This document shows, piece after piece, positions 2-42,307 of a stretch of 64,000 nt of DNA. Origin of the DNA: a virus. Both the position numbers and the translations under genes were made by a program. Where the stretch lies: the IMG/VR virus record IMGVR_UViG_3300010352_001565, positions 51,055 to 115,054 of that record; one strand, written 5' to 3'. Every line of letters starts with the position of its first letter. The stretch's first letter is position 1. The notes under the pieces are model-generated. The model saw only the letters and a list, made by a program, of their open reading frames with translations. It ran no database searches and was not told the DNA's origin.

Positions 2-1432
2 TCTTTCGAGAAGATCGACTATGAGCCTGGAGACGGCGTGAGAGGTTTGAGCTTCGTCCATCCTTTTGACGTCCGCCGCTACTGGCTCGAGCGCAACCGC
101 CAGTGCATTGGTTTCCGTTGGAACAACCACAATCCGCGCCATGACGACGTGTTTGTGCAGCCGGACAACAAGTCCGAGATCCAGCGCGTCCAAATGAGCA
201 CTGGCCAAAATGTCGAGCATCTTTGGTATCCGTGGGACTTCATGCACATGCGCCGCACTTTCAGGCTCCGATCCTCAGAGCACGGCGAACCCATTTTTGA
301 AGAAGCACAAGGCATCTACAAGAAGCTGCGCATGGCCGTTGACATGATGGTCGTGCACCGCGCTCAGATTCAGCCTGACAGGTACGTCGTGAACATCGAC
401 GTCAAAGACCAGGCTCCGATGGAGCAGATGAAGACAGTCGCGCGCTGGAAGCAGTCACTCCGCAGCAAGCTGGCGTTTGGGCCTGGTCAATCGGCGTCCG
501 CAATGACTGACCCATCGTCGTTCGACTCTTTCCATAACGCCATGGCCCTTGACACCATCCTCTGGATGGCCAAACCCAACGGCTTCCAGCATACCGTTGA
601 GAAGCTTCCTGGCACCGCGTCAGTCCCAGACGTGTACGACATTGAGCTCCTTACCGATCTATTCTATTCAATCATCGGCATGCCTAAGGCATGGTTCGGT
701 GTCACGAAAGATGGCCAGAATCCTCCTTCTGGCAAGTCGCTGCTGGCGCAGGACATGAGGTTCTTGCGCAAGATCAAATCGATTCGCCGCCCTGTCATCA
801 ACGAGTACACTCGCCTGGGTTACTTCCATGCCCTGCTCAAAAACAAAGACGTCAGCAAGCTTGAGATCAGAGCTAAGATGTCGCCGATTGGATCTCTTGA
901 AGATCAGATGAAGCTCGAGCTCCTCGCCGCCCAGGCAGATGTCCTTGACAAGCTTGGCGACTTGATGGAGAAGTACAGCCTCCCACGCGAAGCGTGGGTC
1001 GAAGTCATTTTCAAGCGGTACATGCACCTTCCTGATGACGTCGTGAACGTCTTTCTGACGGCGCTTCCTCCCGAAGCCGAAGCTCAAGAGGAAAGCAAGC
1101 GCAAACCAGCTCCTGCTATCGGCAAGATTCTAGCCGAATGTGCCCAGTACGCCACCGGAAATCGTGACGCTCTCATGCGGATGCGACAGCTTCAAGAGGC
1201 AGTCTACGGCGGACCAGGAAACAGCATGGCCGAGAAGCGCGAAGCTCGGCGCATGAAAGAAACCCTGACCAAAATGCCAGAGTTCAAAAAAGACGAGTTG
1301 GTAGTATCATCTTTCGGGACCAACCCGCTTACCCAGCTTGCCGGCACACCTCCAGTGGCAAAGAGCTCTCAGTCAATCAATGAGTCTGCTTCTGCCGAAC
1401 CGGCATGGAGAAAGTGGTCTCCTCTCAAATAG
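2..1432 (+). CDS. hypothetical phage structural/morphogenesis protein, 5'-truncated (reading frame is open to the window edge)
   Basis: ORF 38..1432 begins at a GTG but the same frame has no stop back to nt 2. Its position immediately upstream of baseplate genes suggests a structural role. No family motif recognised. Confidence 0.5.
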   Translation, partial: SFEKIDYEPGDGVRGLSFVHPFDVRRYWLERNRQCIGFRWNNHNPRHDDVFVQPDNKSEIQRVQMSTGQNVEHLWYPWDFMHMRRTFRLRSSEHGEPIFEEAQGIYKKLRMAVDMMVVHRAQIQPDRYVVNIDVKDQAPMEQMKTVARWKQSLRSKLAFGPGQSASAMTDPSSFDSFHNAMALDTILWMAKPNGFQHTVEKLPGTASVPDVYDIELLTDLFYSIIGMPKAWFGVTKDGQNPPSGKSLLAQDMRFLRKIKSIRRPVINEYTRLGYFHALLKNKDVSKLEIRAKMSPIGSLEDQMKLELLAAQADVLDKLGDLMEKYSLPREAWVEVIFKRYMHLPDDVVNVFLTALPPEAEAQEESKRKPAPAIGKILAECAQYATGNRDALMRMRQLQEAVYGGPGNSMAEKREARRMKETLTKMPEFKKDELVVSSFGTNPLTQLAGTPPVAKSSQSINESASAEPAWRKWSPLK

Positions 1433-1435
1433 CTT

Positions 1436-2212
1436 ATGCCTACTCTGGTCTTAAATCCAGTCGCGACTTCGCTCAAAGCAGAGCGGTCGCGGTTTGTTGA
1501 CTTCAAGCTCGGCGATGACAACCAGGCCGGAATCCTGATTACCGAGAACAACAACCAGCTGGCGCACCAGCTTGTCTCAGGGACTATTGACTGGGGTGAC
1601 GGAACTCCTCTTCTTGACGTCGCGACGCGAACGCCGGTTGAGTACACAACAGACGGTTCGGCTGACCTGGCAAAAATCAGAAAAACGCTGGCTGTCAGCA
1701 AGCTAGTTCATCCTTACGCTCCCGGGACCTACACGGTAGTTGTGACTGCCAGGAACTATAGGACGCCAACCCCCGAGATAGTGACGCAGGCCGTTACCGT
1801 TACCGTTGAGGGTGCTGTTGTCGTAGCTCCTAAGCTTGGAACGCTGTTTGGCCCTATCCTTCCGCGCGATAATGGGTTTCCAAACGCTGACCAATGGTCT
1901 CTTCACTCTGGGTCTGGAGTGGCTGTAATTGCATCATCAGTGAAGATGCTGATGGTCACTGGAAAGGGCGACAGGATTGCTGAGCCTGAATACGGCACTA
2001 ACATTGCCAAGATTCTGTTTGATCCCAATACTCCAGACGCTGAATCTCAGCTTCAAGAAGAGATCACTCAAGCTCTCAACCGTTGGGAGCCGAGAGCCTC
2101 ACTCGCGAAACTTATCATTGAGCGAAAAGGAAAAGGGGTAAAGATCGTCGCTGAGTTCAACTCTAACGCCGGCCAGACGTTTCAAGTTGACGCATCCTAC
2201 AACCGTTCTTAG
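1436..2212 (+). CDS. baseplate wedge protein, gp25/GpW-like C-terminal domain fused to an N-terminal PKD-like domain
   Basis: C-terminal ~120 aa carries the GPW/gp25 signature (GKGDRIAEPEYGTNIAKILFDP...ITQALNRWEPRASL). N-terminal half has PKD-like beta motifs (WGDGTP, TYTVVVTARN). Confidence 0.75.
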   Translation: MPTLVLNPVATSLKAERSRFVDFKLGDDNQAGILITENNNQLAHQLVSGTIDWGDGTPLLDVATRTPVEYTTDGSADLAKIRKTLAVSKLVHPYAPGTYTVVVTARNYRTPTPEIVTQAVTVTVEGAVVVAPKLGTLFGPILPRDNGFPNADQWSLHSGSGVAVIASSVKMLMVTGKGDRIAEPEYGTNIAKILFDPNTPDAESQLQEEITQALNRWEPRASLAKLIIERKGKGVKIVAEFNSNAGQTFQVDASYNRS

Positions 2213-2216
2213 TTCA

Positions 2217-2543
2217 ATGAGTAAAAAAGAGACTGTGACGCGTTCCGAGTTCATTCGGAGATACATGGCGTCGGGTTTTACGTATGAAGAAGCCGCAAAG
2301 GCTTACAAGGTAACAGTCTCAGTGATTGAAGACGCCATCATCGCAGGAAGCCGAGTGGGTTTCGGAAAGGTCGGCGCTGTCATCCCAGTCGTGACCAAAG
2401 CTCGTGTGGTTAACATGGGATTTCAGCGCGTGCGCGGAGGAATCAAGCATGTGCAAAGGGAGTACAACATAGGACAGCGGATCCGCTGGAAGTTCTCGCT
2501 GTTTCGCAAATTCGAGGAAACTCACAACTTGCGGTGGGCGTAG
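2217..2543 (+). CDS. hypothetical protein; weak HU-like GFGK motif
   Basis: ATG at 2217 inside ORF 2187..2543. Basic C-terminus. Only a VGFGK motif resembles HU/IHF. Confidence 0.45.
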   Translation: MSKKETVTRSEFIRRYMASGFTYEEAAKAYKVTVSVIEDAIIAGSRVGFGKVGAVIPVVTKARVVNMGFQRVRGGIKHVQREYNIGQRIRWKFSLFRKFEETHNLRWA

Positions 2544-2555
2544 CTATTTAGCTAT

Positions 2556-4109
2556 ATGGCACTAATTGTTAAACCGCTAAGCATTCCTGATGCAGGCGCT
2601 CAGGAGTACGCGCATGGAGATGTCGCCCACCTGACGCAGACCGACGAGCTCGCCTATCCGGCAATATCTTCCGCTACCCGGCAGCTTGCCTACCGCGACG
2701 TCCTGATTTCTGACAAGCTGAACGAAGTCATCGGCGCCATAAACAACCGCGAGCAGCTCATCACTTTGCCGACAGTTCGCACCACGCTTCCCGCTTCGTC
2801 TACCGAGACAGTTGCCAACTTTCGCATCCCAGACGGCTACGAAGCTCGCATCATCAACGCCAAGGTTTTCTCGACCAGCTCTGATGCCACGCTCAAGGTC
2901 CTGTACAACGAATCGTACGGGCAGACAACTGGTCAAGAAATCGTTTCGACCATGTCTGAGGTCAACGCGGGTACGTCCTTCTATGGCGTAGGCGAGTTCG
3001 TCGTCAACCTTACGTCCTCCACGATCGCGACTGACGTAGTTGCCAGCGTAATCATCTCTCTGCGCCCGCTCGGTGTTCAAGCAGGTGGCCTTATCAGTGC
3101 AGGAACGGTTGGACAGACGGGTCCTCGCGGATTGACCGGTGCTCGTGGCGCCACTGGCAACAACGGCACGAATGGAATCAGCTTCATTTGGCGCGGTCTT
3201 CACGACATCACCCAGGCGTATTCCGCAAACGACGTCGTGCGCAAGGCTTTCGGAGGAATCTACTCGTGCTTCATCGCCAAGGTCTCAATTGCCGCGAACT
3301 CTGGGTTTTATCCTCCTGACCCATCAGTCACCGCGTCCACGACTCAGTGGGATCTGTTTGTCGGAGCTGGCGTTACTCAGGGTCCGCAAGGAATTCCAGG
3401 AACAGCAGGAACTCCTGGAGCGAATGGAGCGAATGGAACTAGCATCAATCCGTGCGGTCGGTGGAATCCAGGCCTAACGTACTACAAGTGCGACCTTGTC
3501 ACCATACTTCAAGACGTCATAAATCGCACGTTTGTTGTCTTCTCGGCGTCAGCTCCAGCTGGGCTAAGTCCCATCGACGACGCTGGAACCACTGGCGTTG
3601 GAACATACTGGATGGAGCTTTTTGGGCCGTCTTACACTGGCGTGGCCGTGACTGGTGACACTGTATCCGCCTACTACCTGACTGCCGGATACACCACAAC
3701 AACGGCTCAGGGATCAACGTCTGGAGGCTATCTTGCGCTAACTCGCAATGCGTCCACAGAAACCACAGGATTTTGCAAGGAGTCATTAGTTTATTCGACT
3801 GACGATGCGTCTGGATTCGCAGTCCTCATCGGAGGGGCTTCGCTGCTTGGTAAGGACAACGTCAACAACACCGCATTTACTATTACTCTTTCGCTTCCTA
3901 AGCCAGGCGCAGGCTCAAAACCGAGTAAGGCTACATGGACAACGGACGACGTTAAATGCCTCGCGATTGCCGCGAATAACACGGCTGGCATCTTGAGTAT
4001 CTCAGCAGCTCCTAATGCCTCGAAGGACGCGTTTATTATCACAGTTGACACTGGAACGGCCGCTGAGCAGAAGTTCAACGTGTCTCTCTTTGGGGCGAAG
4101 CCCTTTTAG
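2556..4109 (+). CDS. collagen-like tail fiber protein
   Basis: Two Gly-X-Y runs (GQTGPRGLTGARGATGNNGTNG and GPQGIPGTAGTPGANGANG). Ser/Thr/Gly-rich beta-like remainder. Lies next to the baseplate gene. Confidence 0.75.
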   Translation: MALIVKPLSIPDAGAQEYAHGDVAHLTQTDELAYPAISSATRQLAYRDVLISDKLNEVIGAINNREQLITLPTVRTTLPASSTETVANFRIPDGYEARIINAKVFSTSSDATLKVLYNESYGQTTGQEIVSTMSEVNAGTSFYGVGEFVVNLTSSTIATDVVASVIISLRPLGVQAGGLISAGTVGQTGPRGLTGARGATGNNGTNGISFIWRGLHDITQAYSANDVVRKAFGGIYSCFIAKVSIAANSGFYPPDPSVTASTTQWDLFVGAGVTQGPQGIPGTAGTPGANGANGTSINPCGRWNPGLTYYKCDLVTILQDVINRTFVVFSASAPAGLSPIDDAGTTGVGTYWMELFGPSYTGVAVTGDTVSAYYLTAGYTTTTAQGSTSGGYLALTRNASTETTGFCKESLVYSTDDASGFAVLIGGASLLGKDNVNNTAFTITLSLPKPGAGSKPSKATWTTDDVKCLAIAANNTAGILSISAAPNASKDAFIITVDTGTAAEQKFNVSLFGAKPF

Positions 4110-4120
4110 TTCTTAGCAGC

Positions 4121-5458
4121 ATGCTGAACCCTGTAGTGCTTGCCCGGAACGACAGCGGGCTCGGGACCCTGGCTTACCTAGTAAACCAGGGTCTTCCTAT
4201 TTTCATCCCAGACCTTCGTGTTGATGACAGCCTTGTCCACGCTGAGTTCTCAGAAATCGAGGCGCTTAAACCATACGCTGGGTTGCTCAGTCTCAATCAC
4301 CGTCGCGCATGCCAAGGTCGAACAAGGCACGACGTGGTGAACAGGAATATACCTTTGACCCTCATGGTTGTTCCTACTCTGGCGTGCAACATGTCCTGCA
4401 GCTACTGCTACGCAAAGTCAAAGAAACCTCAAAAAGGAAGCCAAGCTCTTTTTTCATTCCTAGAAAAGCACGGAAAGAAGTTCAAACGCGCCACCGTGTT
4501 TGGCGGAGACTCTCTCATGATCGACGAGATGCCTGAGATCATGAGGTCGTGCACGGCAGAAGGAACTGAGTTGATTTTCATGACTGGGCTAGGGTTTGAG
4601 GAGTCTGATTTGGTCCGAAAGGTCGAGAACCTCGTTAAGCACGATTGTGTGATAGGAATGTCGATCGATCCTCCTCCGCAGCCTGGATTTTCGTACTCTA
4701 GAGTGTACTCTGGGTTTAAGGGAGATTGGTACAAAGAGACAATAAGAAGGGTTGGAGTCATTCACAAACTTGGAGCCAGGTGGAGAGCCGGCGCAACGTC
4801 ATCTGACGCCTGCTGCGATCACAGAATCCTAAGGTCTGATCTTTCTGCTGCGACTGGAGTTCCGGTGGAGAAGGTGGTCCTTAATGCCGGTCACGTTAAG
4901 CAGGACTCATTTTTGACAAATTTGAAAGTTGTTGAAAAAGCTCTTGAAAACGACGCGAACGATGCTATAAACGGGCGGCTCAACCTAAAGCTGATGGGGC
5001 ACTTTAAGCGAGTCTTTGAGCTCCTGATGCCATCCGCGTTTATGCAGCAGGGATGCGGAATGTATTCTCAGATCGCTATCGGTCCAGACGGAAATCTGAA
5101 CTACTGCCCAGAGGTACCCACTCTTCTCGCTTCAGAAAAACAAAAATTTGAGTTTGGAACTGAGGTGGATCCGTCGAAGTACGCAGTCGCCTACGAGCAG
5201 TACTTTAAAAGTTCCGAGTGCAGTCAGTGCTGCTACCGAAACGCGTGCCGGTCACGCTGCCCTCTTCTGACTGACGAGAAATGCGCCTTTTATAAAGTCG
5301 TCGCCAAGCAGGTTTTTAGGATCCTTGCTAACGTCGACGACCCGTCACTGTTTGAACACCAGCTTGCGGAGCGCGTTGAAAGCACCGCCAGATGGATGGA
5401 CGAACCGGTGCTAACGCGCGAAGAGATCGAGTCCTACGGCGCAGAGATCTTGGCGTAA
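4121..5458 (+). CDS. radical SAM enzyme with C-terminal SPASM domain (anSME/peptide-maturase-like)
   Basis: Canonical CX3CX2C (TLACNMSCSYCY) near the N-terminus. C-terminal cysteine cluster CSQCCYRNACRSRCP fits SPASM CX2CX5CX3C, and upstream there is GCGMYSQ...YCPE. Confidence 0.8.
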   Translation: MLNPVVLARNDSGLGTLAYLVNQGLPIFIPDLRVDDSLVHAEFSEIEALKPYAGLLSLNHRRACQGRTRHDVVNRNIPLTLMVVPTLACNMSCSYCYAKSKKPQKGSQALFSFLEKHGKKFKRATVFGGDSLMIDEMPEIMRSCTAEGTELIFMTGLGFEESDLVRKVENLVKHDCVIGMSIDPPPQPGFSYSRVYSGFKGDWYKETIRRVGVIHKLGARWRAGATSSDACCDHRILRSDLSAATGVPVEKVVLNAGHVKQDSFLTNLKVVEKALENDANDAINGRLNLKLMGHFKRVFELLMPSAFMQQGCGMYSQIAIGPDGNLNYCPEVPTLLASEKQKFEFGTEVDPSKYAVAYEQYFKSSECSQCCYRNACRSRCPLLTDEKCAFYKVVAKQVFRILANVDDPSLFEHQLAERVESTARWMDEPVLTREEIESYGAEILA

Positions 5459-6114
5459 GAAACAAGGTAACTGGTTTCGATTTGATTCCTGCGACAGCGC
5501 ACAGTAAGGAACGTTCTTTCTTTGAAGATTCTCTCTCCCACAATCTCAGCGACTGGAACTTCTCCAATTCCTAAGAAGGCTTTAGCGCAGTCAAACCTGT
5601 GGGCTTCGTGAACATACATCGACTTTTCATTGATATTCGTGCAGTGACCACGCATTGCAACACACACCGCAAGATTGTCAGCTGAGCACAGAAGGTGAAC
5701 CGCCGCAGCAGTTGACACCTTGCATGGAACTCGAGTTACAGCATCAACGCGCCGAACCGGCTGAGCTTGACCTTCGCTGCACACCGCGTGGAATTGAAGC
5801 TCTCCAGCGGTGGTTGAGCACGTTCCGCAGAATGAAGAGTGGGGATGCTTTCCAACAGCAATAGAGACAAGTCCGCTTGACGGGCGATTCCATCTGCACT
5901 CGATCTCTAATACTGGCCCGAATGATTTCTCTAGCTTTGCAATCGCGAAAGAGATAAGGTCTCTTCCGTGAAGACGCCCAGACCCAGTACCGGTTCTCGA
6001 GCAGTAGTCTCCGTCAAGCCAGCGCTCAAGAGAAAGTATGCTATCCAAGTCCTCCATAGCAGCAGCAGTCGTCGTCGCATGGAGGAGTGTAGCACGGACC
6101 ACCCGACTTTTCAC
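5434..6114 (-). CDS. hypothetical protein
   Basis: 226-aa ORF convergent with the rSAM gene. Overlaps the stop region of 6041..6472 by 74 nt in another frame. No clear motif. Confidence 0.4.
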   Translation of the reverse strand: MKSRVVRATLLHATTTAAAMEDLDSILSLERWLDGDYCSRTGTGSGRLHGRDLISFAIAKLEKSFGPVLEIECRWNRPSSGLVSIAVGKHPHSSFCGTCSTTAGELQFHAVCSEGQAQPVRRVDAVTRVPCKVSTAAAVHLLCSADNLAVCVAMRGHCTNINEKSMYVHEAHRFDCAKAFLGIGEVPVAEIVGERIFKERTFLTVRCRRNQIETSYLVSYAKISAP

Positions 6115-6472
6115 ACGCCGGAAGATAGTACTTCTGACCCCCTATCGAAATCATAATGACGTGATTCGCGTTGATGACCGTGTTTCCTCCGGCGCTGTAC
6201 GTCATGTTACCTCCCCTGAATCCTATCGGAAGAAGCGTGCCAGTTCCGCTTGGGGCTGCTGAGTGGGCGCTGAGGTAGCTTGCTGACGCATGAGATGAAA
6301 GGCTTCCTGAAACTGACGCATCCGCGGGTCCTCCGTTTCCAACAGCTTGAAGTATTGCAAGCTTCGCGGCATCGACAGAAGGTCCTATGACTCCTACTTT
6401 CGAATCGATGCAGTCAAGCTTAGTGAGCAATCCGCTAACCGCAGCCTGGGTAATTAAATTCGTGGTGCTCAT
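6041..6472 (-). CDS. small fiber-like protein with Cys-rich C-terminus (paralog 1 of 3)
   Basis: N-terminus (TTNLITQAAVSGLLTKL) resembles the N-termini of the two upstream genes. C-terminus is PACEKSGGPCYTPPCDDDCCCYGG. Confidence 0.5.
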   Translation of the reverse strand: MSTTNLITQAAVSGLLTKLDCIDSKVGVIGPSVDAAKLAILQAVGNGGPADASVSGSLSSHASASYLSAHSAAPSGTGTLLPIGFRGGNMTYSAGGNTVINANHVIMISIGGQKYYLPACEKSGGPCYTPPCDDDCCCYGGLG

Positions 6473-6799
6473 CTAGGTAACTCCGAGTATTGTGCTTGCT
6501 GGAATGTACATCGTCGTGCCGTTGCATTCAACCCTTAAGACTCTTTTTCCAACTAGTCCTCCTGCCGCGTATTTGTATGTCGAAGTATTGATTTGGCACG
6601 CATGGCCGTCGACTGCAGCTTTAGCTGCGTGCGCTGAGATGTCGCTTGTGGCACTCACGATCATCGCGTTTACGTCGTCTATCGCTTCTTGGCACTTTGC
6701 GATAAATGAGTCCTCTGCGTTTGAAAGGCTGTTTGACACCGTGTCAACACCCGACGTGAGACCGGCTATAATTGCTTGGGTTGTTAGCGCAGAGTCCAT
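6473..6799 (-). CDS. small fiber-like protein (paralog 2 of 3)
   Basis: N-terminus (LTTQAIIAGLTSGVDTV) is similar to the neighbouring genes. Confidence 0.5.
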   Translation of the reverse strand: MDSALTTQAIIAGLTSGVDTVSNSLSNAEDSFIAKCQEAIDDVNAMIVSATSDISAHAAKAAVDGHACQINTSTYKYAAGGLVGKRVLRVECNGTTMYIPASTILGVT

Positions 6800-6800
6800 A

Positions 6801-7418
6801 TTACAGTACTAGTATCTTTTCAGAAATCATTCTCGCCTGAGTTGGAACTTTCAGCGAGGTTCCAGCAGCAACAACAGCAGTCACGTTCGTGATGTTATTG
6901 ATCTTTGCAATAACCCACCACAGATCGGGAACAGTATAGTAAATCGTCGATATTTCCTCTAGCGTCTTTCCGCCAGCTGGCACGACATACGTGACGTCTG
7001 ACGCTTTAGAGGAAACGTTCCCGTTTGGTCCTGACGGAACGTAAGAGCAGGGAACGTACATCGTCACAGGAGCCTTGCTTGTATCGATTGAGCCGTCGTC
7101 AAGCCTGCGCGGAACGTTAAACACAAACACCCAGTATCCTACGACTGAACCGTATGAATTCCGGTACGGCGTGCTCGGAGCTTTAAGCGTTACCCCATGC
7201 GCCTCCACTAATGAAAGGCTGGCGTGCTGGTTAAGGCGTGCGTCAGCTCTAGACTTGAAATCGTTTATCGCTCCAGTGACGTCGCTGATCAAATTGCCTA
7301 TAATCGCCTGAAGCTGAGCCACTCCAGCCGAAGACGCGCTCGTTAGTGCGCTGATGTCGCTCGCTGTATTGTTCGTTATGACCCCGACCGTGTTAGGCAT
7401 AGCATACTTACAGAACAA
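6801..7418 (-). CDS. tail-associated protein with LysM-like C-terminal domain (paralog 3 of 3)
   Basis: C-terminus (YVVPAGGKTLEEISTIYYTVPDLWWVIAKINNITNVTAVVAAGTSLKVP) matches the LysM pattern. N-terminus (SDISALTSASSAGVAQLQAIIGNL) resembles the paralogs. Confidence 0.55.
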   Translation of the reverse strand: MFCKYAMPNTVGVITNNTASDISALTSASSAGVAQLQAIIGNLISDVTGAINDFKSRADARLNQHASLSLVEAHGVTLKAPSTPYRNSYGSVVGYWVFVFNVPRRLDDGSIDTSKAPVTMYVPCSYVPSGPNGNVSSKASDVTYVVPAGGKTLEEISTIYYTVPDLWWVIAKINNITNVTAVVAAGTSLKVPTQARMISEKILVL

Positions 7419-7430
7419 GTTCTAGGCTCT

Positions 7431-7754
7431 ATGCGCCTGCTACAGAAAGAAGTCATTGATAGGTTTAAGTTTGATTGCGTTGCTGGAAGCTCGTTCGTTG
7501 AGGTTGACAGGTTTCTTCATTCAGGAGGAAGCGAAATCAAATTCCTTCTAGTTCTTACACCAACGCCTACTGGCAGGTCATCGTCCATCATCGTTATTTT
7601 GTCAGTTCCCGCACCGGATGGCGACGGCGTATGGTGGCTGTTAAACCCATTCATGAGTGACGAGATCGTCACACACCTGTGCAAGCTAGCTCCTCCTTCA
7701 GTACTGCAAAGCAGAATTCCCGACGATCTGAAAGTGGAGCTCGGGATCAAGTGA
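7431..7754 (+). CDS. hypothetical protein
   Basis: ATG-initiated 107-aa ORF between two minus-strand units. It ends just before a bidirectional hairpin. Confidence 0.3.
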   Translation: MRLLQKEVIDRFKFDCVAGSSFVEVDRFLHSGGSEIKFLLVLTPTPTGRSSSIIVILSVPAPDGDGVWWLLNPFMSDEIVTHLCKLAPPSVLQSRIPDDLKVELGIK

Positions 7755-7755
7755 C

Positions 7756-7784
7756 TAAAAAGGCGTCCTCGTTTCCAAGGACGC
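7756..7784 (-). terminator. rho-independent terminator for the minus-strand helicase operon (possibly bidirectional)
   Basis: Stem GGCGTCCT/AGGACGCC with loop CGTTTCCA. On the minus strand it is followed by TTTTTAGT. It lies immediately after the stop of gene 7807..8199. Confidence 0.6.
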
Positions 7785-7806
7785 CCCAAACAAACCAACA
7801 GCCAAA

Positions 7807-8199
7807 CTATTTCTCGTCGTCTTCAGGGGGAGGCGCTTCATCGCCTTCTCCTTCATCCTCACCAGCAGCGTCTTTCGGGGCAGGAAGCTCGCGGTCCAAA
7901 TCAGCGAGAGAGTTGATCTCACCAGATGCTCCACCAGGAGATTTAGGAGCGCCAGGACCCGCGGAAATCGGTTGAGAGCCTCCAGTCTGAATGTTTTCTT
8001 CACCGTCGCCCTCTTTGCTGTCTTCATCTTCACCTGGCTTGGGAAGTCGTTCCATGCTCCAGATGATGCCGGCAAAAAGCTCGTCGGCAATCGGACCAGT
8101 GTGGTGTTGGGACAGCGCATCGCGAATGGCTTCAAGTTCGCCCCACGACATGTTCAACTCGTAGTCGTTGAATGATCCTTTTTTCTTTTTAACTTGCAT
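7807..8199 (-). CDS. small protein with strongly acidic C-terminal tail
   Basis: ATG (MQVKKKKGSF) at 8199. C-terminus is AGEDEGEGDEAPPPEDDEK. Immediately downstream of the helicase with an overlapping stop/start. Confidence 0.5.
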   Translation of the reverse strand: MQVKKKKGSFNDYELNMSWGELEAIRDALSQHHTGPIADELFAGIIWSMERLPKPGEDEDSKEGDGEENIQTGGSQPISAGPGAPKSPGGASGEINSLADLDRELPAPKDAAGEDEGEGDEAPPPEDDEK

Positions 8200-8206
8200 G
8201 CCATAA

Positions 8207-10003
8207 CTACGCGCCAGCGTAAGGTTCAGCGGCCTTGAAAGTTTCGGCGGCCTGGGCAGACTCTGGCTCGGTGCACGGATACTTGAACTCGTAAGCCCTG
8301 AACTTCTCAAGACCTTTGATAACATCCATAGATCCGCGGTAGTAGGTTGGGTGCTGGCGTTCCACAAACATTGTGATGCGACCGACGTTCTCGCCGGTAT
8401 ACTTCTTGCGAATCATGCGACCGATCATCTGATTTAGCAGCTCAAACGAGGCCACATAGTCAGCGATCACGCCTGCTCGTATCTCATTAACAGACACGCC
8501 TTCTTTGACCACACTCGAGATCAGGATGCAGCCTGGTGTGGCTCTCAGCCAGTCGAACGTCTCGTCGCGCTGCTTGGTGCTGTGCTCAGAAAATAGTATC
8601 CTCACCTTATCGGCGCCGACCAGCTTGGAGATCATCGCCTGGAGAATGTAGACGTGGAGCGTTCTTGTGGCAACCACAAGAGTCTGTAGACCCTGGTCCG
8701 CGTAGAACTTAGCCCACCTGGCAATGAGCTGGTTGCGCTCCTTAAACGATATGATGCTCTTGTCATACATGCGCTCAAGCAGGCACCACTTTGACTCAAC
8801 CTCAAACTCTCCCATCTTTCCATTCGGAGCTGGAAGTGAGAGGCGGTGGCAGTTTGGCACCTTGACCAGCTCGCCGTCTTTGTCACGAAGCAGCCCATCC
8901 TCGTATTTCTGATCTGGATCAGTTTCGTAGACTGGACCAAGATATGTCCCTCTCTGCCAGACCCCTTTGATCAACGCCCAGGCGTCAGTCTCCTCGGTCG
9001 GAAGCTGGCTGACTCCCTTGAACTTGTTTTTCCACGCGCGGATGTCGACCACATGCACGATGGGCTTCGCGATGCGTCCGACGTGAATGAGCGGCGCCGC
9101 CTCGATCTTCTCAAGGATGGGACCGACCAAACCGTGCATGTCGCTGCACCGCGTCTTATCTTCGGAAAGCGTGGTGTCTGAGGCACCAAGACGATAGAAG
9201 GCAGGGATGGCCATTATAGCCTTGGACCAGGAGTCACTCGGAGCGTGGTGACACTCATCGACGAGGATTCCCGCGAAAGTGTTGAACCAGCCGTCGCGTT
9301 TCAGCTTGATGAAGTGGCGAGAAAGCATTGAGCCAGTCACGACAACCATATCGCGACCTTTGGACAAGGTCCAAACCTCGTTTCCACTCGAGTCTTTCTT
9401 CATCAGTTCATTCTTGCCACCACCAAATTGGGCGATGTCCCACGACGGAAGGAACTTCCTGGCTTCTTTGATAACCTGGTTGGCCAGACGCTCAGACGCC
9501 GTGAAATAAATGAACCGAGCGTCAGGCATCTCTTTCTTGATCATCGCCGCGGCGGCGCAGAAAGTGACAGTCTTACCACCTGATACAGTGACCTGGCACA
9601 TCCCGATCGCTTCAGAGAGCCACGCGCAGATGCATCTACGTTGACCCTCGTCTAATTGGAACTCAGAGGCCACTATGTCGTCAGGGACATCATCTGGAAC
9701 CATTCCCTTGAATGACCTTGGAAGAAGCTTTGAGGTGTTAAGATCAAACCGGTGTATGCGGCAGAGATCGAGGACGTCCCTTAGCCATCCGCGTCGAGCC
9801 TCGGCGCTTGTCGGGCTGGTTTTCTCGACCGGGTAGAGGTATCCACTCCAGCCTCGCTTGCCCTCCGTGAGCTTATACATCTGGTAGGAGTCGGCCCTCC
9901 AATAGTTCTCAGGACGGAACTTAAAATGATCCGTAATCGTGTTGATCTCTTCGTTCGAGCCGAAGATCCTTATCCGCGATGCAGTTTCTGTTAACGTGAC
10001 CAC
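8207..10003 (-). CDS. superfamily-2 DEAH-box DNA/RNA helicase
   Basis: Walker A (VSGGKTVT), motif II (ILVDECHH), motif VI (QMIGRMIRK). GTG start. Confidence 0.85.
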   Translation of the reverse strand: MVTLTETASRIRIFGSNEEINTITDHFKFRPENYWRADSYQMYKLTEGKRGWSGYLYPVEKTSPTSAEARRGWLRDVLDLCRIHRFDLNTSKLLPRSFKGMVPDDVPDDIVASEFQLDEGQRRCICAWLSEAIGMCQVTVSGGKTVTFCAAAAMIKKEMPDARFIYFTASERLANQVIKEARKFLPSWDIAQFGGGKNELMKKDSSGNEVWTLSKGRDMVVVTGSMLSRHFIKLKRDGWFNTFAGILVDECHHAPSDSWSKAIMAIPAFYRLGASDTTLSEDKTRCSDMHGLVGPILEKIEAAPLIHVGRIAKPIVHVVDIRAWKNKFKGVSQLPTEETDAWALIKGVWQRGTYLGPVYETDPDQKYEDGLLRDKDGELVKVPNCHRLSLPAPNGKMGEFEVESKWCLLERMYDKSIISFKERNQLIARWAKFYADQGLQTLVVATRTLHVYILQAMISKLVGADKVRILFSEHSTKQRDETFDWLRATPGCILISSVVKEGVSVNEIRAGVIADYVASFELLNQMIGRMIRKKYTGENVGRITMFVERQHPTYYRGSMDVIKGLEKFRAYEFKYPCTEPESAQAAETFKAAEPYAGA

Positions 10004-10520
10004 GCTTATGAGAACCTAAGAGTTTTGAGGCTGGCTTAAAAAGTCCAGTTCTTTAAACAACTGTTGTTGTTCGCAGTGCGAAGTGACAAGTCAGCGGCCA
10101 TAGAGCCCAAAGGTCCACATACTTCGTGAGTCGATTCAACACCCGTGGATGGTCGGCATATTATGGAGCAATGAGTGACTAGAGGACATTCCCAGTCCAG
10201 TCCAAGAGACTCCCAGGCCCACATGACCACCACGGTTTTTTAATTCCCGTTCGAGATGTCCTTTGGCAAGACTTTAAACATATGCCTGGCGCTCTGTCGC
10301 GTTGTTGTTAACGCAACCATGTCGATAACACCTGAGTTGTCTCTATCTCTCAGACGCCAAATCGCCGCTCGTGAGTTGGCTAATCCAACACGACCGGTTG
10401 ACCGGGGGCTGACCACCCCCACGCGTTCAGGCACCCCCACGCCCGCTCCCCGCGCTCCTGAAATAGGGGTCGCCAGACCCATTGGTCAACACACCGTGAT
10501 CTTTTTTCTCTTGATCACTA
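10004..10520. promoter_or_regulatory. divergent intergenic control region with direct repeats and palindromes
   Basis: 517 nt between the divergent minus helicase operon and the + block. Contains CACCCCCACGC x2 (10414-10424 and 10432-10442), GACCGG x2, and the palindrome TTCGCAGTGCGAA (~10067). The only long ORF here is low-complexity. Confidence 0.4.
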
Positions 10521-16266: not shown

Positions 16267-19200
16267 ATGAGCTTGCAGCCACTGCCAGAAGATTTTCTTT
16301 TTAACAAGATCCCTGAGGGAGTTCAAAACCTCGATTCACGAGGAGTGCTTCAAGCGCTGTGCGGTGGTTACCAGGACCGCCTCGAAGATCTGCGCTCGTA
16401 CGTCAAGAAGTACGAACAGCTGCTCGATCCAACTGCGCCATTTCCTGAGACTTCAGACAACGTCATCTTTGCCACTTACACCAGCTCTCAAGGACGAACT
16501 GTCATAAGGACCCTCACGGTGGACAGCTCGACTCCAAAGCTTCCTGAAGGCACCGTTCCTGGATCTGGACCGTGGAAGCTGTGGTACGGAAATGTCGCAG
16601 AGTGGGCCGCTGAGCGCATGGGAATGAGCTCAGACCTGCTGACAAGCGTCTCGCTTGGGACTGACTTCCTGCGCGCTGTCGACGCCGACATCATCCAGTA
16701 TCTGGCTTCGACTTTCGGCACCGTCCTTTATCAGACCAACAAGAGCAAGCTTCGTGCGTCTGAGCAGCGGCGCATCGTGGCAGGTTACTTCCCGCGGCTC
16801 AAGATCAAAGGAACATCGCAGAGCTTTGAAGTGCTCGGCAGGTTGATGAACTTTGGCGAAGTGAAACTGACTCCTCTATGGGGGCGACTCACGCCGCGCC
16901 TTCCAAACGACGTAGGCTCTCCTGCTAACGACAAGGACTTCAAATTCTCGCCTGACATCGAGCCCACGGTTGCTGTTAGTACGCCTGAAGACATTCAGCC
17001 GTACGATCCGTTTGACTATACTGATGGAGGAGAGCTCTTCGGGTGGCCTGCGGTTCAGAACGGAACAGACTGGACATTTGGAAGCTACGCCACCCTGAGT
17101 ACCAGCCGAAACACGCAGAGCTTTTACCCGACCGCGGTGAATGGCTACAACCCATTTGTAAAGATCTTTGTAAGCGAGACAGGAACAGTAAGCCACCCGA
17201 AAGCAGGAACCGCTTACGTCCTGTCAGGTGGAGCAAACCACAGGAAAGCGTCCGTGGAGCTGGTTCAAGGCCCAACTGAGATCAACACCGACGCTTTGCG
17301 CAGTCTTCCACTTTCAAGCGCGCTGCATGCTGTTGCTGGAAAGGGAGCAGTCATCTATGGAGGAGTCAACTACGCTCAAGACTCGATCTTCACCGGAGCA
17401 AGCGGAATTGAAGTCGGCACGGCATCCGGAAGTGTTGAAGTCTACGCCGTGACAGACTCAGGGAACGACACCTCAAAGAGTTACGTCGTGACAAACCAGT
17501 TCACGGGAGTGGTCGGAAAGACCTACGCAGTAATCACTGGCAATGTGATTGCAAGAGACTCGAGTGGAAACGTAGTTGCACACTCAGTGGTCTCAGACTC
17601 GCTTGGAAACGAGATTCCAACTATCCCGGTGCAAGTCGGAGAGACATACACCATTCAATCTGGGTCTGGAAGCGCCAACGACTACGCGACGTACAACGGG
17701 GTGGACATCGGAGGTCGAAGCGGCTCCTCAGGCCCTCTGTATCTTGGGTTGAGGGTAGCGGGTATCAAACAAGGTTTCAAGTACGCGGTGGTAGGAACAG
17801 GAGTCGTTTTGTACAACGGCGTCTGTTATGCGGCCAGCAGCAGGTTTACCGGAAATGGAGGAATTTTTAGTCGCGTCTTCAACGTAGGAGGCGCAGACGC
17901 AGATTCATCTGACCTGTCAGTGACCAGCAACCCCGACGGCGCCAGGATGTGGGCAGAAGCAATTGCAGAAGGTCCAGGATTTAACGGAGTGACACTTACA
18001 ACTGGAGCGCTAGGACAACTAAGGATTGAGCCTTACTACCTGTCTGCGGTCAAATACCGAACAAGCTACTACAACCTGTCGCTTACTATCGACTTTGAAA
18101 AGTTCGTGAAAGCGTACGGAGCTTCAGCGGTTACCAAAAACAAGAATCTTGCCGAGAACCCGTCACTGTGCTCTGATGGAACAGCCCAAGCTCCATTTCG
18201 GCCGTGGACTGGAGTAAGACCGCGCGTCCAAGCGTCACCAGCAAATAAGGACGTGCAGATCGACATGGCAAAGCTCAGCGAGATCGGGCTTCAGTCTACT
18301 CAGCACTTTGAGGAGGTCCGCGCTGCAACTCGTGCCCCTCGTCGATTATCGTTTGGATTCTCGCTTGCGGACAACGTGATCTACGCTCCATTTCCGAATA
18401 AAACAACCTTGGCAACCTACGCCGAAGGCGACGAGATGACGGGAAACGGAGATGCTCTGGCCATAAGTCCAAATCCTCCTGAACCGCCTTACAGCGCTTC
18501 ACTCGTGCTTCTTTGCGCAGACGGCGAAACGCAAGTTGCAGCCACAGGTGAAACTGACCCGAACGACCAGCACACTATCAACTACACGGCTACCGTTATT
18601 GACAAACTAGGCGTGACTCGCGGGTTCACAGCCACATTCCGCTTTCCAAGCGGAGACTCTGGCGCAGATAGCGTGACAACTCCGATTCCGATCAACACGT
18701 TCAAGTATAGCTGGTCTGGAGATGTCGCAGTTGGACAGCAGATCATCGCAAAGTGGATTCCTGAAACTCCAGACAAGTTGCGTCCTGAGCCGACAAACGC
18801 TCTCAAGGAACAAGACTTGGTGGGATACCAGGGGAGACCTGAAGATGAGCAAGATCCGACTGAAGGACAGTATGCTCAGAATGAGGACGGCTCTGTGCTT
18901 AGCAGCCTGTGCGCTGGCGGGGACATGGTCGACCTTGACACTTATCTTCCTGACAAACCTGACGCGTCATTGAGAGCTGAGACCTCAAAGCTGACAGTGC
19001 TAGATCAAAGCGGAGTTGAGTTTGACGTGATCGGTCATGACATCATGTCTCAAACTCAATCGCGCCCAATCCGCATCTCGCTTGCTCCTCGAGTTCCGAA
19101 TGGTAGCGGAGAATACATCCAGGGACGCACGGCAGTCGGTGTGATGGGGGACAAGCTTTACCACATTGGATCTGTCAACGGGGTACTTGTCGGGGATCCC

Positions 19201-37845: not shown

Positions 37846-38439
37846 ATGGACACTCCAAAATTCATCAGGACCGAACTCCTCCAGCTCTCGCCCAAGGCCA
37901 AGGCCTTGCACATCTACGTCGAAGGCGAGGTCGATCTCAACCAGTTCCTCAAATACGCTGACGAGGTCTACCACAACTTTGGCAAGGACGGCGTCATGCA
38001 GGTCTCGGTCTGGGTCACCGGCGGCGTCACGGCCTTCATCGACCAGCGCGACATGGGCTATTGGCTGATCGGGCTTACCACCATGAACACCCTGCTCGCC
38101 CAGGAGACCGCCCGCGTCCTCAAGCTCCCGAACCTGGCAGTCGAGAGCGACCTAGTCGGCCACAACATCATCCGCTCCCAGAGAGACCGCGACATCTTGC
38201 AAGTCCTGGCTACCGCCCGACCCCCGAACTTCGAGCAGATCATCAAAGAGGAATGCGACCGCTTCTACAAGGGCATGATCAAGGCACCCGCCCACTGCCC
38301 GACCTGCAAGCTCCAGTTCACCAACCCGACCACGGGCCTGGTTCAAGCCACCTGCCACCAGTGCAACAAGCCCCTCGTCGCCGGACCCCCTCTGGCACAG
38401 CCCAGGAGCTCCCCGAAGACCACGTCCCTACGACGCTAG
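37846..38439 (+). CDS. hypothetical protein with C-terminal zinc-ribbon (CPTC...CHQC); possibly continues by -1 frameshift to 38765
   Basis: ATG at 37846. After a CCCCC run (~38385) the -1 frame continues as natural-looking Pro/Thr-rich sequence ending in CPMCGRTWCECG. Confidence 0.5.
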   Translation: MDTPKFIRTELLQLSPKAKALHIYVEGEVDLNQFLKYADEVYHNFGKDGVMQVSVWVTGGVTAFIDQRDMGYWLIGLTTMNTLLAQETARVLKLPNLAVESDLVGHNIIRSQRDRDILQVLATARPPNFEQIIKEECDRFYKGMIKAPAHCPTCKLQFTNPTTGLVQATCHQCNKPLVAGPPLAQPRSSPKTTSLRR

Positions 38440-38779
38440 ACGAAGCTCCCCAGAGCCCTTCAGAGCCCCTCCTGACCAAAGTCATCCTCCCTACGCCCCT
38501 TGACCACGTCGTCACAAGCATCCTGACAGCCCCAGAGGCACCCGTCACCCAAGCCCCTGTGGAACCTAGCCCTGCCCTCTCTGTCATCCCTGACTCATGC
38601 CTGGGCTTCAAGGAAACGCCCCCTACGCAGAAAGGCTTCGGCATGGACATCTTCGAGATCGGCAACCGAGGCCCCAAGGAAACAGGCTCTAACGACTACC
38701 CGGTCTGCCCCATGTGCGGCAGAACCTGGTGTGAGTGCGGCAAGGGCCCTGAACACCGGCCCTAACCATAAGAAACCCT

Positions 38780-38971
38780 ATGAGAACCTCTACCTGCCGC
38801 ATCTGCGGCGTAACCTTCAATAAGAAGACCCGCAAGTACCGTGGCGCCCGTAGCAACGCCTGCGACGCCCATAACAGATACTTCACCCTCCCTAAGGGCC
38901 TGTTCGAGGAGATCGCAGGCCACTACGATGCCTCCGTAAGGCCCTCAGAGGCTGCAGAGATGGTGGGATGA
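38780..38971 (+). CDS. small zinc-finger-like protein
   Basis: CRICG...CDAH. Confidence 0.4.
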   Translation: MRTSTCRICGVTFNKKTRKYRGARSNACDAHNRYFTLPKGLFEEIAGHYDASVRPSEAAEMVG

Positions 38972-39166
38972 TAGTGGACGAAGAGCTCTATTGCCACGCC
39001 ATAGCAGTCCCTGAATCCATCTACATTGACTTCAATGCGTATGACGTCTGCCTAGACGGGAAGAGGGTGCGCATCATGCGGCCTAAGAGCACCTGGGACT
39101 GATTAACGGACTGACATGCCGTTCTCTACGCGAAAGCGGTCCAACATCTAAATCGTAGACAAATTT

Positions 39167-42100: not shown

Positions 42101-42307
42101 ATCTACGCCACGGCCACCGAATATCCGCTCTCTGTGTCAATCATGCAGAGGGAGCCGTCTGATGCAAGCAGCCCAATCAGGTCTGAGGCTGTGCGTCCCT
42201 CGATCGCCGAGCGCATGGTCTATACCAGCAAGCGCGATCTCTCACTCGCTTTGAACGCGCTCCGCGTGTTCGACCGTACCGAATGTTTTACACGTTCTAA
42301 CCGCTAA
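39167..42307 (+). CDS. large (1046 aa) alpha-helical hypothetical protein (candidate internal virion/ejection or scaffold-like protein)
   Basis: Ala/Gln/Arg-rich. Internal repeats (AATDYDEEATDYGEEA and a QSQSQSQ microsatellite). No enzymatic motif seen. Confidence 0.7.
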   Translation: MPENFAEPIGAAANESQVADSQALTTRAQVRENPLLRRPARARRQAGAPEPAPSVDATPTIPGTLEGAVEARVASPGELVPPIRAPFRRADSARVRSSYREVSDAVRETSNRLQATMASAPAPATPEWPHDDMGDIDEAPAQVSERPSSDRPRPHPSVLEPPSRALDNARVGQVQAPFDETMVNTNDPTPTPVVNVRVERSQVVERPRRLDGTWTAEAETTLATHAPPQPVLSEQVIAQMRELSNQVQRVHEVVNPETGETMRLPAATIGPGEIANRIQLVNDMMAASADAVTRRNNIVETIGRTIRRMRESRNQLAQVSHNQPTSHRRDEATNAVRVCDQLLSAFDEVRPTINNVSDVSDRLLMDFQAACEGQTENMDRMRDQFDAITAAGAAFNFDPQAQARRRSGASPTPTNEDQVVINTNLLRQLRETVSAARTIRSSNVITPEQWNQYENTLNEAATILSANNVNSPITAMDALTSYAEAIRRVDHTLAALNSQIMHTRYGAPQSQSQSQETPPIPTPMPPVAPMSEPPGVVHYLDRITPGEPQLRISGSPRTVRSNLSLGEAARQFAASQETQRGIDLLTEQLNSYNAGLRTSAAERTQSCQELSSRIRGYYTEIDTMSSRLVALIAEHGTNQRLNPDVLSAMARAEDARRMQAMVEQAVASQSDVVLETILDTCSIAVSRLGTAIGMLTQVEVTEDPTAPVTVESVRADIRRLRDLINSNNVLLPPAVLREVLGANQRAQTIYNANPANIGELISAREGLQRAQSMIQHVMTPATPSPTAAPVPQAQPEPPATLRSAPNLVAQQATADAANQDFVVTAGYSNSNSLTMEIPVPTTTTVHTSAGVTGTSGTPGIRGVRGSNRAATDYDEEATDYGEEADAPDTNPYQPATTLRQGDVFIIVDTAQGSPNLETKQLCECVSTSSFGIHYNEIGQMGVPTRSLSPTRMISKLQVTNHWMVTPTSQRDLLHRMWHIYATATEYPLSVSIMQREPSDASSPIRSEAVRPSIAERMVYTSKRDLSLALNALRVFDRTECFTRSNR

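Follow-up and report, generated by a model that had tools for sequence, protein, structure and literature searches.

The window analysed here, a 64,000-nucleotide stretch of DNA from an uncultured giant phage, contains a gene for a radical SAM/SPASM enzyme and, converging on it, a group of small genes, one of which encodes a protein with a Cys-rich C-terminal tail. The features considered are as follows, each with the evidence for its assignment.

1436..2212, plus strand: gp25-like baseplate wedge protein, given as context (PF04965, E 3e-12; phrog_43, E 1e-17)
2556..4109, plus strand: fibre-like protein of 517 aa with two collagen-like runs (G-X-Y triplets)
4121..5458, plus strand: radical SAM/SPASM enzyme of 445 aa (P0001), proposed maturase (ORF and motifs)
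4121..4345, plus strand: N-terminal add-on domain of the enzyme, aa 1-75 (AlphaFold secondary structure)
4385..4408, plus strand: CX3CX2C stretch of the enzyme, C89-C96 (motif reading and alignment)
5054..5284, plus strand: SPASM domain of the enzyme, aa 312-388, with seven Cys for two auxiliary clusters (motif read directly)
5434..6057, minus strand: Cys-rich ORF of 207 aa with 11 Cys, downstream of the 143-aa gene (codon score; gene callers)
6041..6472, minus strand: 143-aa protein (P0062), proposed substrate (family alignment A4; homologs P0058-P0063)
6044..6115, minus strand: its Cys-rich C-terminal tail CEKSGGPCYTPPCDDDCCCYGGLG, aa 120-143, with six Cys, the proposed modification site (sequence)
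6473..6799, minus strand: tail-less paralog of 108 aa (paralogy with the 143-aa protein)
6801..7418, minus strand: 205-aa paralog, or 199 aa from the ATG at 7400 (paralogy; phrog_7145)

The first-pass annotation had placed these genes in a tail-fiber module. This description is loose: fibre-like and baseplate genes do lie on one flank, but together with portal and HU-like genes, and the other flank carries a helicase. The 517-aa protein has runs of 9 and 7 G-X-Y triplets (aa 183-209, 3102..3182, and aa 276-296, 3381..3443), which are kept in its homologs. It matches Pfam Collagen with an E value of 2e-4, under the gathering cut-off, and its tail-fibre PHROG matches sit mainly on the collagen region. 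The enzyme gene, earlier described as directly following this collagen-like gene, indeed starts 12 nt downstream of it. It was also said to converge on three small paralogous genes; the orientation and the paralogy are borne out, but a likely fourth gene between them, 5434..6057, had been missed. This ORF has a codon score of +0.069, the other five frames there being negative, was called by gene callers in 5 of 6 samples, and overlaps the 3' end of the enzyme gene by 25 nt. No homolog in related loci and no family match were found for its product, and it is likely a real gene. The enzyme gene and the 143-aa gene, which flank it, are not co-transcribed in the window.

The CX3CX2C motif of the enzyme is formed by C89, C93 and C96, and a Gly-rich, SAM-binding GGDS motif lies C-terminal of it at residues 128-131. 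The cluster Cys residues are kept in all 11 family sequences spanning that region, and the GG is invariant in the alignment. A relative, P0003, has an intein inserted exactly at the position matching 4385..4408 of the window enzyme. The SPASM domain shows the full seven-Cys pattern (C312-x11-G-x4-C329 ... C367-x2-C370-x5-C376-x3-C380 ... C388), all seven residues being invariant in the 12 aligned family members; both Cys clusters noted on first reading are thus present and conserved. The fold is a partial TIM barrel like that of solved radical SAM members. The N-terminal domain, modelled by AlphaFold as four beta-strands and two helices, is possibly a substrate-docking domain; a Pfam search gave no PqqD/RRE match to it, and it is missing from the shorter enzymes of RSL2-type phages.

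Classification with radical-SAM and SPASM profiles, which had been suggested as a check, supports membership of the enzyme in a peptide- or protein-modifying radical SAM/SPASM clade. Its best matches are CteB, PapB, anSME and SkfB, in line with the anSME-type or peptide-modifying architecture first suggested. The window enzyme scores 22.0 bits against PF04055 (gathering score 29.5) and 26.6 bits against the SPASM model TIGR04085 (cut-off 27); the former is matched by all 12 family members (best E 3.8e-8) and the latter, at E<=1e-3, by nine. By sequence, the family profile is closest to CteB (E 2.2e-16). PapB is the top NCBIfam model for 10 of the 12 members, and its alignment to the window enzyme is full-length with a score of 36.9 against an equivalog cut-off of 340. 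The SCIFF model TIGR03974 weakly matches 3 of 12 members. The anSME model TIGR03942 scores 14.6 on the window enzyme against a cut-off of 349, and anSME is its second-best structural match. Because the enzyme scores far under every curated equivalog cut-off, its chemistry is not transferable by homology. Assignment to a tRNA, cofactor or DNA-modification family was rejected.

The 143-aa protein consists of a long N-terminal helix, a beta-hairpin, a conserved Gly and the Cys-rich tail, and its C-terminal end is PACEKSGGPCYTPPCDDDCCCYGGLG. Six of its last 24 residues are Cys, against a background of 1.06% (P about 2e-7), and the first 119 residues hold only one; the Cys-rich ending noted earlier is therefore genuine. 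Homologous tails are rich in both Cys and His, typically CHSxCHSxC, and the window tail, which has no His, deviates from this CHSx consensus. In the family alignment, an invariant Gly directly precedes the first tail Cys, in AG, EG or GG contexts. The AlphaFold model is poor (pLDDT 51), with only the long N-terminal helix, the hairpin and a disordered tail; the predicted disorder of the tail (pLDDT 31-44) fits what would be expected of a peptide-like substrate.

The three small proteins are true paralogs, with 23-25% identity, H..H and Y.P motifs common to all of them, and cross-matches to one another's orthologs in other phages (E 1e-12). In L028, L029, L030 and L031, too, the gene immediately upstream of the tailed one encodes a tail-less paralog. 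Pfam, PHROG and structure searches gave no structural or family match for the small paralogs, except that the C-terminal part of the 205-aa protein (6828..7013) is similar to the LysM-like region of baseplate wedge proteins, with aa 136-197 matching phrog_7145, 'baseplate wedge subunit', at E 2.2e-7; a Pfam search gave no LysM match there. Their earlier interpretation as virion fibres or receptor-binding proteins is unproven.

An exhaustive HMMER search of 1.84 billion representatives returned only 13 relatives of the enzyme below E 1e-10. Flanking genes are readable in five other places (L027/L028, L029, L030, L031 and L024). In every one of them, a homolog of the 143-aa protein that shares its pre-tail domain and ends in a Cys/His-rich tail is encoded next to the enzyme gene or within two to four genes of it, while orientation, intervening genes and wider context vary. 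In L030 an intein is inserted inside the tail, and CNCTCEFW, the predicted L030 splice product, is exactly the end of the intein-less ortholog P0059. Since a single diverged phage lineage accounts for most A2-family loci, part of this linkage could be inherited synteny.

We also scanned by motif alone, using 120 IMG/VR loci that match a CHSxCHSxCHSxC DNA pattern. Only three of these (L072, L107 and L126) encode a credible protein carrying the motif, and a SPASM-type radical-SAM gene is adjacent in all three versus 3 of the 117 others (Fisher P 7e-5). The tailed proteins and the SPASM subfamilies in these cases are unrelated, and the phages range from 24 to 52% GC. Together, the five places and the independent motif-only cases, some of which are in cultured phages, give strong comparative support to the 6041..6472 product, one of the two candidate substrates named on first reading.

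Similar pairs occur in cultured phages of four host genera, Ralstonia, Burkholderia, Agrobacterium and Pseudomonas. Three 'hypothetical proteins', RSL2 ORF068, Atu_ph07 gp170 and pPa_SNUABM_DT01 PA10_00065, are each encoded directly downstream of a SPASM radical-SAM gene (ORF067, gp171 and PA10_00066, respectively), and all end in C-H-[ST]-S-C-H-x-S-C-H-x-[SA]-R-[SG]-R-R. These unannotated pairs share with the window the order of a SPASM radical-SAM gene and then a CH[ST]SCHxSCH... protein near virion structural or fibre-like genes. Their enzymes, however, belong to another subfamily (phrog_1802), which is about 350 aa long and lacks the N-terminal domain, their tailed proteins to another family with a shorter three-Cys tail ending in RxRR, and a cupin gene lies upstream. 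In RSL2, it is the neighbour ORF065 that is annotated as a virion structural protein and the tailed ORF068 only as hypothetical, so the annotation does not place the tailed protein in the virion.

Several known systems resemble this arrangement. SCIFF/ranthipeptide systems (CteB-CteA, Tte1186, PapB-PapA/freyrasin) combine a full-SPASM enzyme with a short C-terminal sequence of about six Cys at roughly CxxxC spacing, and CteB, Tte1186 and PapB-type enzymes make Cys-to-beta/gamma-carbon thioethers (PMC8326336). As in PapB and SCIFF systems, a candidate Cys-rich target lies beside or near the enzyme: the six-Cys tail in the window, tailed homologs in the five other places. The differences are that those systems reside in Clostridia or Paenibacillus and the present one in a phage; that the 'precursors' here are 105-488 aa long, with a folded-looking N-terminal part and tail-less paralogs; that His is frequent in the homologous tails; that no recognisable RRE was found in the phage enzyme; and that its PapB score is low. 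QhpD, a SPASM enzyme, installs intramolecular Cys-Asp/Glu thioethers in QhpC, a subunit that stays in a larger assembly (PMC8326336), and so is a precedent for an enzyme that modifies a protein instead of making a natural product. Its similarity to the window enzyme is weak (E 1e-4 to 1e-7, far under the cut-off), there is no dehydrogenase context, and the proposed target in the window, unlike that of QhpD, is a C-terminal tail. Predicted Haft-type maturases (those of the TIGR04115 CXXX-repeat target family, the Cys-every-fifth CefB, TIGR04463 and CcpM) are likewise defined by the periodic-Cys peptides with which they pair. CHSx is itself a form of CXXX repeat, and such models are among the weak matches of the enzyme. 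These models are bacterial and mostly uncharacterised, and their matches cover the cluster-binding N-terminus only, none at cut-off.

We propose that the window encodes a maturase-substrate pair, in which the radical SAM/SPASM enzyme modifies the six-Cys tail of the 143-aa protein; on sequence and gene context, we put the probability of this reading at about 0.6. The modification is probably cross-linking through thioethers. A radical would take a hydrogen from a tail residue, and a tail Cys, placed by an auxiliary SPASM cluster, would close an intramolecular thioether, in the manner of QhpD and the SCIFF/ranthipeptide maturases. Several such rounds might compact the disordered tail into a cross-linked knob. 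This tail would remain on the helical, probably oligomeric 143-aa protein, which may act with its 108-aa and 205-aa (LysM-like end) tail-less paralogs near the baseplate and fibre genes. Against this reading count the low equivalog scores, the deviating, His-less tail of the window, the convergent arrangement of the two genes with the 207-aa ORF between them, and the share that inherited synteny could have in the linkage.

Alternatively, the 143-aa protein could be a RiPP precursor with a 119-residue leader, whose modified tail is cut at the conserved Gly and freed, for example as an antibacterial, signalling or anti-defence product. The position of that Gly, the variable core and the classic layout of L027, L029, L030 and L031, with the precursor first and then maturases, all suit such a product, as do a Trp halogenase near the L030 genes and, in RSL2-type phages, the cupin gene beside the pair and 2OG oxygenases elsewhere in the genome. 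We nevertheless consider it unlikely: no leader protease or exporter was detected in the window or in any related locus, the 'leader' has tail-less paralogs that are conserved next to the tailed protein, the same tail occurs on unrelated, larger proteins of 178-488 aa, and several loci lie among structural genes.

Quite unlikely, in our judgement, is that the tail is a metal site (Zn, Fe, Cu or an Fe-S cluster) needing no enzyme, with the enzyme acting elsewhere and its adjacency reflecting inherited gene order. CHSxCHSxC does look metal-chelating, the tips of phage spikes and fibres are known to carry His-coordinated metals, and most A2-family loci share a lineage. The linkage, however, persists through inversions, insertions and changes of neighbourhood, extends to the unrelated tailed proteins and SPASM subfamilies found by motif alone and to the cultured phages of four host genera, and the window tail lacks His altogether.

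The collagen-like 517-aa protein is a very improbable substrate, whether for epimerisation, hydroxylation-like chemistry or a C-C cross-link: a homolog adjoins a family enzyme, in either orientation, in the window and in L029, L030, L031 and L032, but in L027 and L024 the enzyme and the tailed protein occur with no 517-aa homolog within the sequence there, the nearest characterised enzymes act on Cys-rich peptides, and Cys-based cross-linking is excluded because the homologs carry 0-5 Cys, none conserved, one being Cys-free. Oxidation of one Cys or Ser to formylglycine, also raised in the first-pass annotation, would be chemistry like that of anSME, a SPASM radical-SAM enzyme acting on a protein substrate, but it is equally improbable because no C/S-x-P/A-x-R motif occurs in the tail and the handful found in neighbouring proteins are not conserved, no sulfatase was detected among the neighbouring genes scanned, and the anSME score is far below cut-off.

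Enzymatic cross-linking of Cys-rich tails is, to our knowledge, not described for phage structural or accessory proteins. Phage radical-SAM genes have been catalogued for about 15 years and were either assigned vaguely to a role in host metabolism or labelled 'unknown function' (PMC2853527, PMC8066314, PMC11898562), the latter being the case for the pair genes of RSL2-type phages, Atu_ph07 and DT01 (PMC8066314; PMC11898562). No substrate link for such genes was found in the literature searched. The conserved pair of enzyme and proposed substrate suggests a concrete, testable function, cross-linking of a Cys-rich tail on a phage protein. If correct, it would carry SCIFF/ranthipeptide-type chemistry over from small bacterial peptides to the tails of larger viral proteins and add new SPASM enzyme subfamilies, maybe useful for peptide stapling. 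A broader proposal, which we hold to be less likely than not, is that in many jumbo phages the Cys/His-rich C-terminal tails (CHSx repeats) of virion or virion-associated proteins are cross-linked by radical SAM/SPASM enzymes dedicated to this task, with the window pair as a divergent member. Such cross-linking would represent an unrecognised RiPP-like maturation step of phage particles and would account for radical-SAM gene clusters that were noted long ago but left unexplained, in phages such as RSL2/FLC, Atu_ph07 and pPa_SNUABM_DT01. The presence of the pairing in cultured phages puts it within reach of genetics and mass spectrometry.

The window comes from the genome of an uncultured jumbo phage. 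Contigs that carry the enzyme gene reach 222 kb, and identical sequence, with at most one mismatch across 12 kb, was assembled from six samples (ENA, JGI, Logan). The portal is about 24% identical to portals of T4-like cyanophages and Flavobacterium phages. No deposited phage matched the 12-kb region at the DNA level, and nothing was found in the deposited-phage collection with the enzyme, the 517-aa protein, P0058 (a homolog of the 143-aa protein) or P0002 as queries. Scans for promoters and terminators stayed at or below chance level. The genes are arranged as follows.

Gene order in the window
38..1432, plus strand, portal, cut by the window start
1436..2212, plus strand, gp25-like baseplate wedge
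ending at 2543, plus strand, HU-like protein
2556..4109, plus strand, 517-aa protein with two collagen-like runs
4121..5458, plus strand, radical SAM/SPASM enzyme
5434..6057, minus strand, 207-aa Cys-rich ORF
6041..6472, minus strand, 143-aa protein
6473..6799, minus strand, 108-aa protein
6801..7418, minus strand, 205-aa protein
8207..10003, minus strand, helicase, farther along

The first-pass annotation had described 4121..5458 as a radical-SAM protein with a C-terminal SPASM cluster, and both elements are present: C89-x3-C93-x2-C96 together with GGDS, and the complete pattern C312-x11-G-x4-C329 / C367-x2-C370-x5-C376-x3-C380 / C388. An exhaustive HMMER search of 1.84 billion representatives yielded 13 relatives below E 1e-10, 28-35% identical and mostly full length. 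The seven SPASM Cys are invariant in their alignment, and the three cluster Cys are conserved in 11 of the 11 aligned sequences covering that region. A word-indexed protein search returned the enzyme alone (such searches overall gave the query itself or two members), neither the enzyme nor alignment A3 gave a match in IMG/VR scans, and a metagenome scan gave, among the matches listed, generic radical-SAM N-termini only. Classification by profile places the enzyme among peptide- or protein-modifying SPASM enzymes, but with scores under every curated cut-off: the PapB model aligns over the full length (E 2.4e-9) at 36.9 bits against a cut-off of 340, and the SPASM domain model reaches 26.6 bits against 27. 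The nearest PDB sequence to the family profile is CteB, a SCIFF thioether maturase (E 2.2e-16), followed by SuiB, TigE and SkfB. Residues 1-75 form an additional domain of four strands and two helices, and a Pfam scan of the family detected no PqqD/RRE. Since it falls short of every curated family cut-off, we assign the enzyme only to the SPASM peptide/protein-maturase clade, as a new family there.

The 143-aa protein has the Cys-rich end reported for it, PACEKSGGPCYTPPCDDDCCCYGGLG, with six Cys in 24 residues (P about 2e-7 against a background of 1.06% Cys). This tail is predicted to be disordered (AlphaFold, pLDDT 31-44); the model of the 143-aa family has a pLDDT of 51. Paralogy of the 143-, 108- and 205-aa proteins, also proposed earlier, holds. 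Searched against PDB sequences, the 205-aa paralog and the family alignment of the 143-aa protein gave chance matches only. The 205-aa paralog carries a LysM-like end (phrog_7145, E 2e-7). Taken with the long N-terminal helix of the 143-aa protein, this end could, we infer, belong to an oligomeric assembly at the baseplate or fibres. The 207-aa minus-strand ORF, absent from the first-pass annotation, is situated between enzyme and paralogs. Its codon score is positive and those of the other five frames are negative, gene callers predicted it in five of the six samples, and the stretch is open for 226 codons, which would be very unlikely in non-coding DNA. The ORF has 11 Cys (P about 2e-5 versus background) and overlaps the 3' end of the enzyme gene by 25 nt; a search for a homolog or family found none. 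A role as redox or accessory partner is conceivable.

Genomic contexts of the enzyme relatives, obtained by exact-sequence look-up of the exhaustive-search matches, were scanned for proteins with a Cys-rich C-terminus or with homology to those of the window. A homolog of the 143-aa protein lies beside or near the enzyme in all five other places with readable flanks, which supports the Cys-rich product of 6041..6472 as the probable substrate. Each homolog has a common segment, I.IGG..Y.LPAS...G, followed by a Cys/His-rich tail.

Tailed homologs near relatives of the enzyme
L031: GVCHSQCHSACHSDCNCHSACDGFF, two tandem family enzymes directly downstream
L027/L028: CHSNCHSDCHSNCGCYGGW, two radical-SAM genes downstream
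L029: CHGDCHYNCHSNCDCDSDSSYGFI, two radical-SAM-like genes downstream
L030: GVCHSQCHSACNCT, intein, CEFW, then a homing endonuclease gene and a pair of radical-SAM genes
L024: GACHSKHSSHSSCHTGRMCHAW..., carried by a 488-aa protein, the most distant family member two genes downstream

In L028, L029, L030 and L031 a tail-less paralog lies just upstream of the tailed protein, the same arrangement as in the window, and genes for a large virion structural protein and for an endolysin lie close to the L024 pair. The L030 intein (17037..17816, minus strand) is placed within the Cys-rich tail, immediately ahead of a Cys, and adjoins a LAGLIDADG gene; P0059, an ortholog without the intein, ends exactly CNCTCEFW, confirming the splice prediction. 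A related intein interrupts the CX3CX2C motif of the enzyme relative P0003 (L032, 249..2789, plus strand). The tails resemble SCIFF cores in spacing (six Cys, roughly CxxxC), in agreement with the placement of the enzyme near CteB and PapB. As separate observations, a bona fide flavin-dependent tryptophan halogenase (PF04820, E 1e-86; L030 11500..13014) directly follows a family radical-SAM gene in this related jumbo phage, whose Cys-rich tail ends CEFW, and a 75-aa ORF with two Trp (9777..10004) precedes that radical-SAM gene.

The collagen-like fibre had been put forward as the other candidate substrate. In four other loci, and in either orientation, homologs of the 517-aa protein adjoin the enzyme; they have 0-5 Cys, none conserved, which makes them implausible targets of Cys-based chemistry. 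That the enzyme modifies this protein is highly improbable, and it is perhaps a functional partner in the particle, as a conserved neighbour. Formylglycine formation, also suggested earlier, was rejected on a sequence-motif check and is just as remote.

Because most of these relatives' loci represent one diverged phage lineage, IMG/VR was also searched by DNA pattern for CHSxCHSxCHSxC alone, giving 120 loci. Most were 12-nt tandem-repeat artefacts, and the match in L057 was rejected as an antisense artefact of a 915-aa gene. The motif occurs in a credible protein in only three loci, and SPASM-type radical-SAM genes are adjacent in all three, versus three of the 117 others (Fisher P 7e-5). On a 231-kb viral contig of 25% GC (L072, 290..8938, minus strand), the gene for a protein ending WCHSNCHSNCHSNCHTNRSRR precedes a 246-aa gene and, after it, seven tandem radical-SAM/SPASM-like genes. 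In L126 (24% GC) the tail ends CHGSSGGW, with radical-SAM genes nearby. In L107 (52% GC) the order is a tail-fibre-like virion protein (phrog_2163, E 8e-161), a SPASM enzyme (phrog_1802, E 4e-54) and a CHS-repeat protein. The latter (1642..2865, minus strand, 407 aa) continues from its repeat segment into a PTEAP-repeat linker and a Hint-like domain ending ILHHN, an arrangement suggestive of self-cleavage, after which the repeat could form a new C-terminus.

The L107 enzyme has homologs, 34-54% identical, in cultured jumbo phages. In three of these, the enzyme has the full SPASM motif and lies directly upstream of a gene annotated as a hypothetical protein, within a conserved trio of a small gene, the SPASM radical-SAM gene and the hypothetical protein ending CH[ST]SCHxSCHx[SA]R[SG]RR.

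Trios in cultured jumbo phages, with the end of the hypothetical protein
RSL2 (L153), 6511..8632, ...VCHSSCHTSCHGSRGRR
Atu_ph07 (L154), 5406..7934, ...FCHSSCHASCHNSRSRR
pPa_SNUABM_DT01 (L155), 5495..7576, ...ICHTSCHTSCHSARGRR

The small gene is cupin-like in RSL2 and DT01 and hypothetical in Atu_ph07, and further radical-SAM genes lie downstream of the trio. The combination of a SPASM enzyme and a CXXX-type Cys/His tail is therefore modular, recurring on carrier proteins that are unrelated, with two subfamilies of enzyme and in phages that differ greatly. It is not universal: in Ralstonia phage RP12, four radical-SAM genes come after fibre genes, and a CHS tail is lacking. Between its two fibre-like genes and these four (L156, 19418..29153) is a 126-aa protein ending SHTHYSPDGSY, His-rich and without Cys, which may be a Cys-free variant of the tail-enzyme theme.

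We propose that the radical chemistry of the enzyme would most likely cross-link the disordered tail into a compact knob. The bonds would most probably be Cys-to-carbon thioethers, as in SCIFF/ranthipeptides and QhpD-QhpC, in the latter of which the modified protein stays in a complex (PMC8326336). Release of the tail as a free RiPP peptide is unlikely; the tail probably remains attached to the 143-aa protein, because tail-less paralogs are conserved beside the tailed one, neither a protease nor an exporter was detected in the window or the related loci, and the tail also occurs on large proteins. The Cys/His composition might also suit a metal site needing no enzyme, with the enzyme acting elsewhere; given the recurrent adjacency of tails and SPASM genes, we regard this as quite unlikely. 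For cross-linking of the tail, the enzyme class and a Cys-rich substrate are supported by the comparative evidence, and a virion role of the pair is conjectural.

Bacteria are known to have systems of this kind, in which a SPASM radical-SAM enzyme acts on a Cys-rich target, but the setting here is new. A phage encodes the pair, amid portal, baseplate and fibre genes; the proposed target is a tail borne by a larger protein that has paralogs; and in one lineage an intein has inserted into that tail. Phage radical-SAM genes have been treated as unexplained or metabolic (PMC2853527, PMC5468394, PMC8066314, PMC11898562), and the available literature held nothing relevant linking phages to RiPP, SCIFF or SPASM. 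The hypothesis of a cross-linked tail generalises and is directly testable in cultured phages.

Several other features of the window were observed. One protein (31365..32705, plus strand) combines a Major Vault Protein shoulder domain (PF11978, E 5.5e-22), a vault repeat and an SPFH/Band 7 domain, and a second SPFH/Band 7 protein is encoded nearby (29027..30160, plus strand). The region 38000..42000 has a GC content of 0.58-0.62 versus about 0.54 elsewhere and contains a 1046-aa ORF (39167..42307) without a Pfam match. A glycosyl hydrolase family 39-like protein (61507..62892, plus strand; E 2.6e-16) is possibly a depolymerase or lysis-related enzyme.
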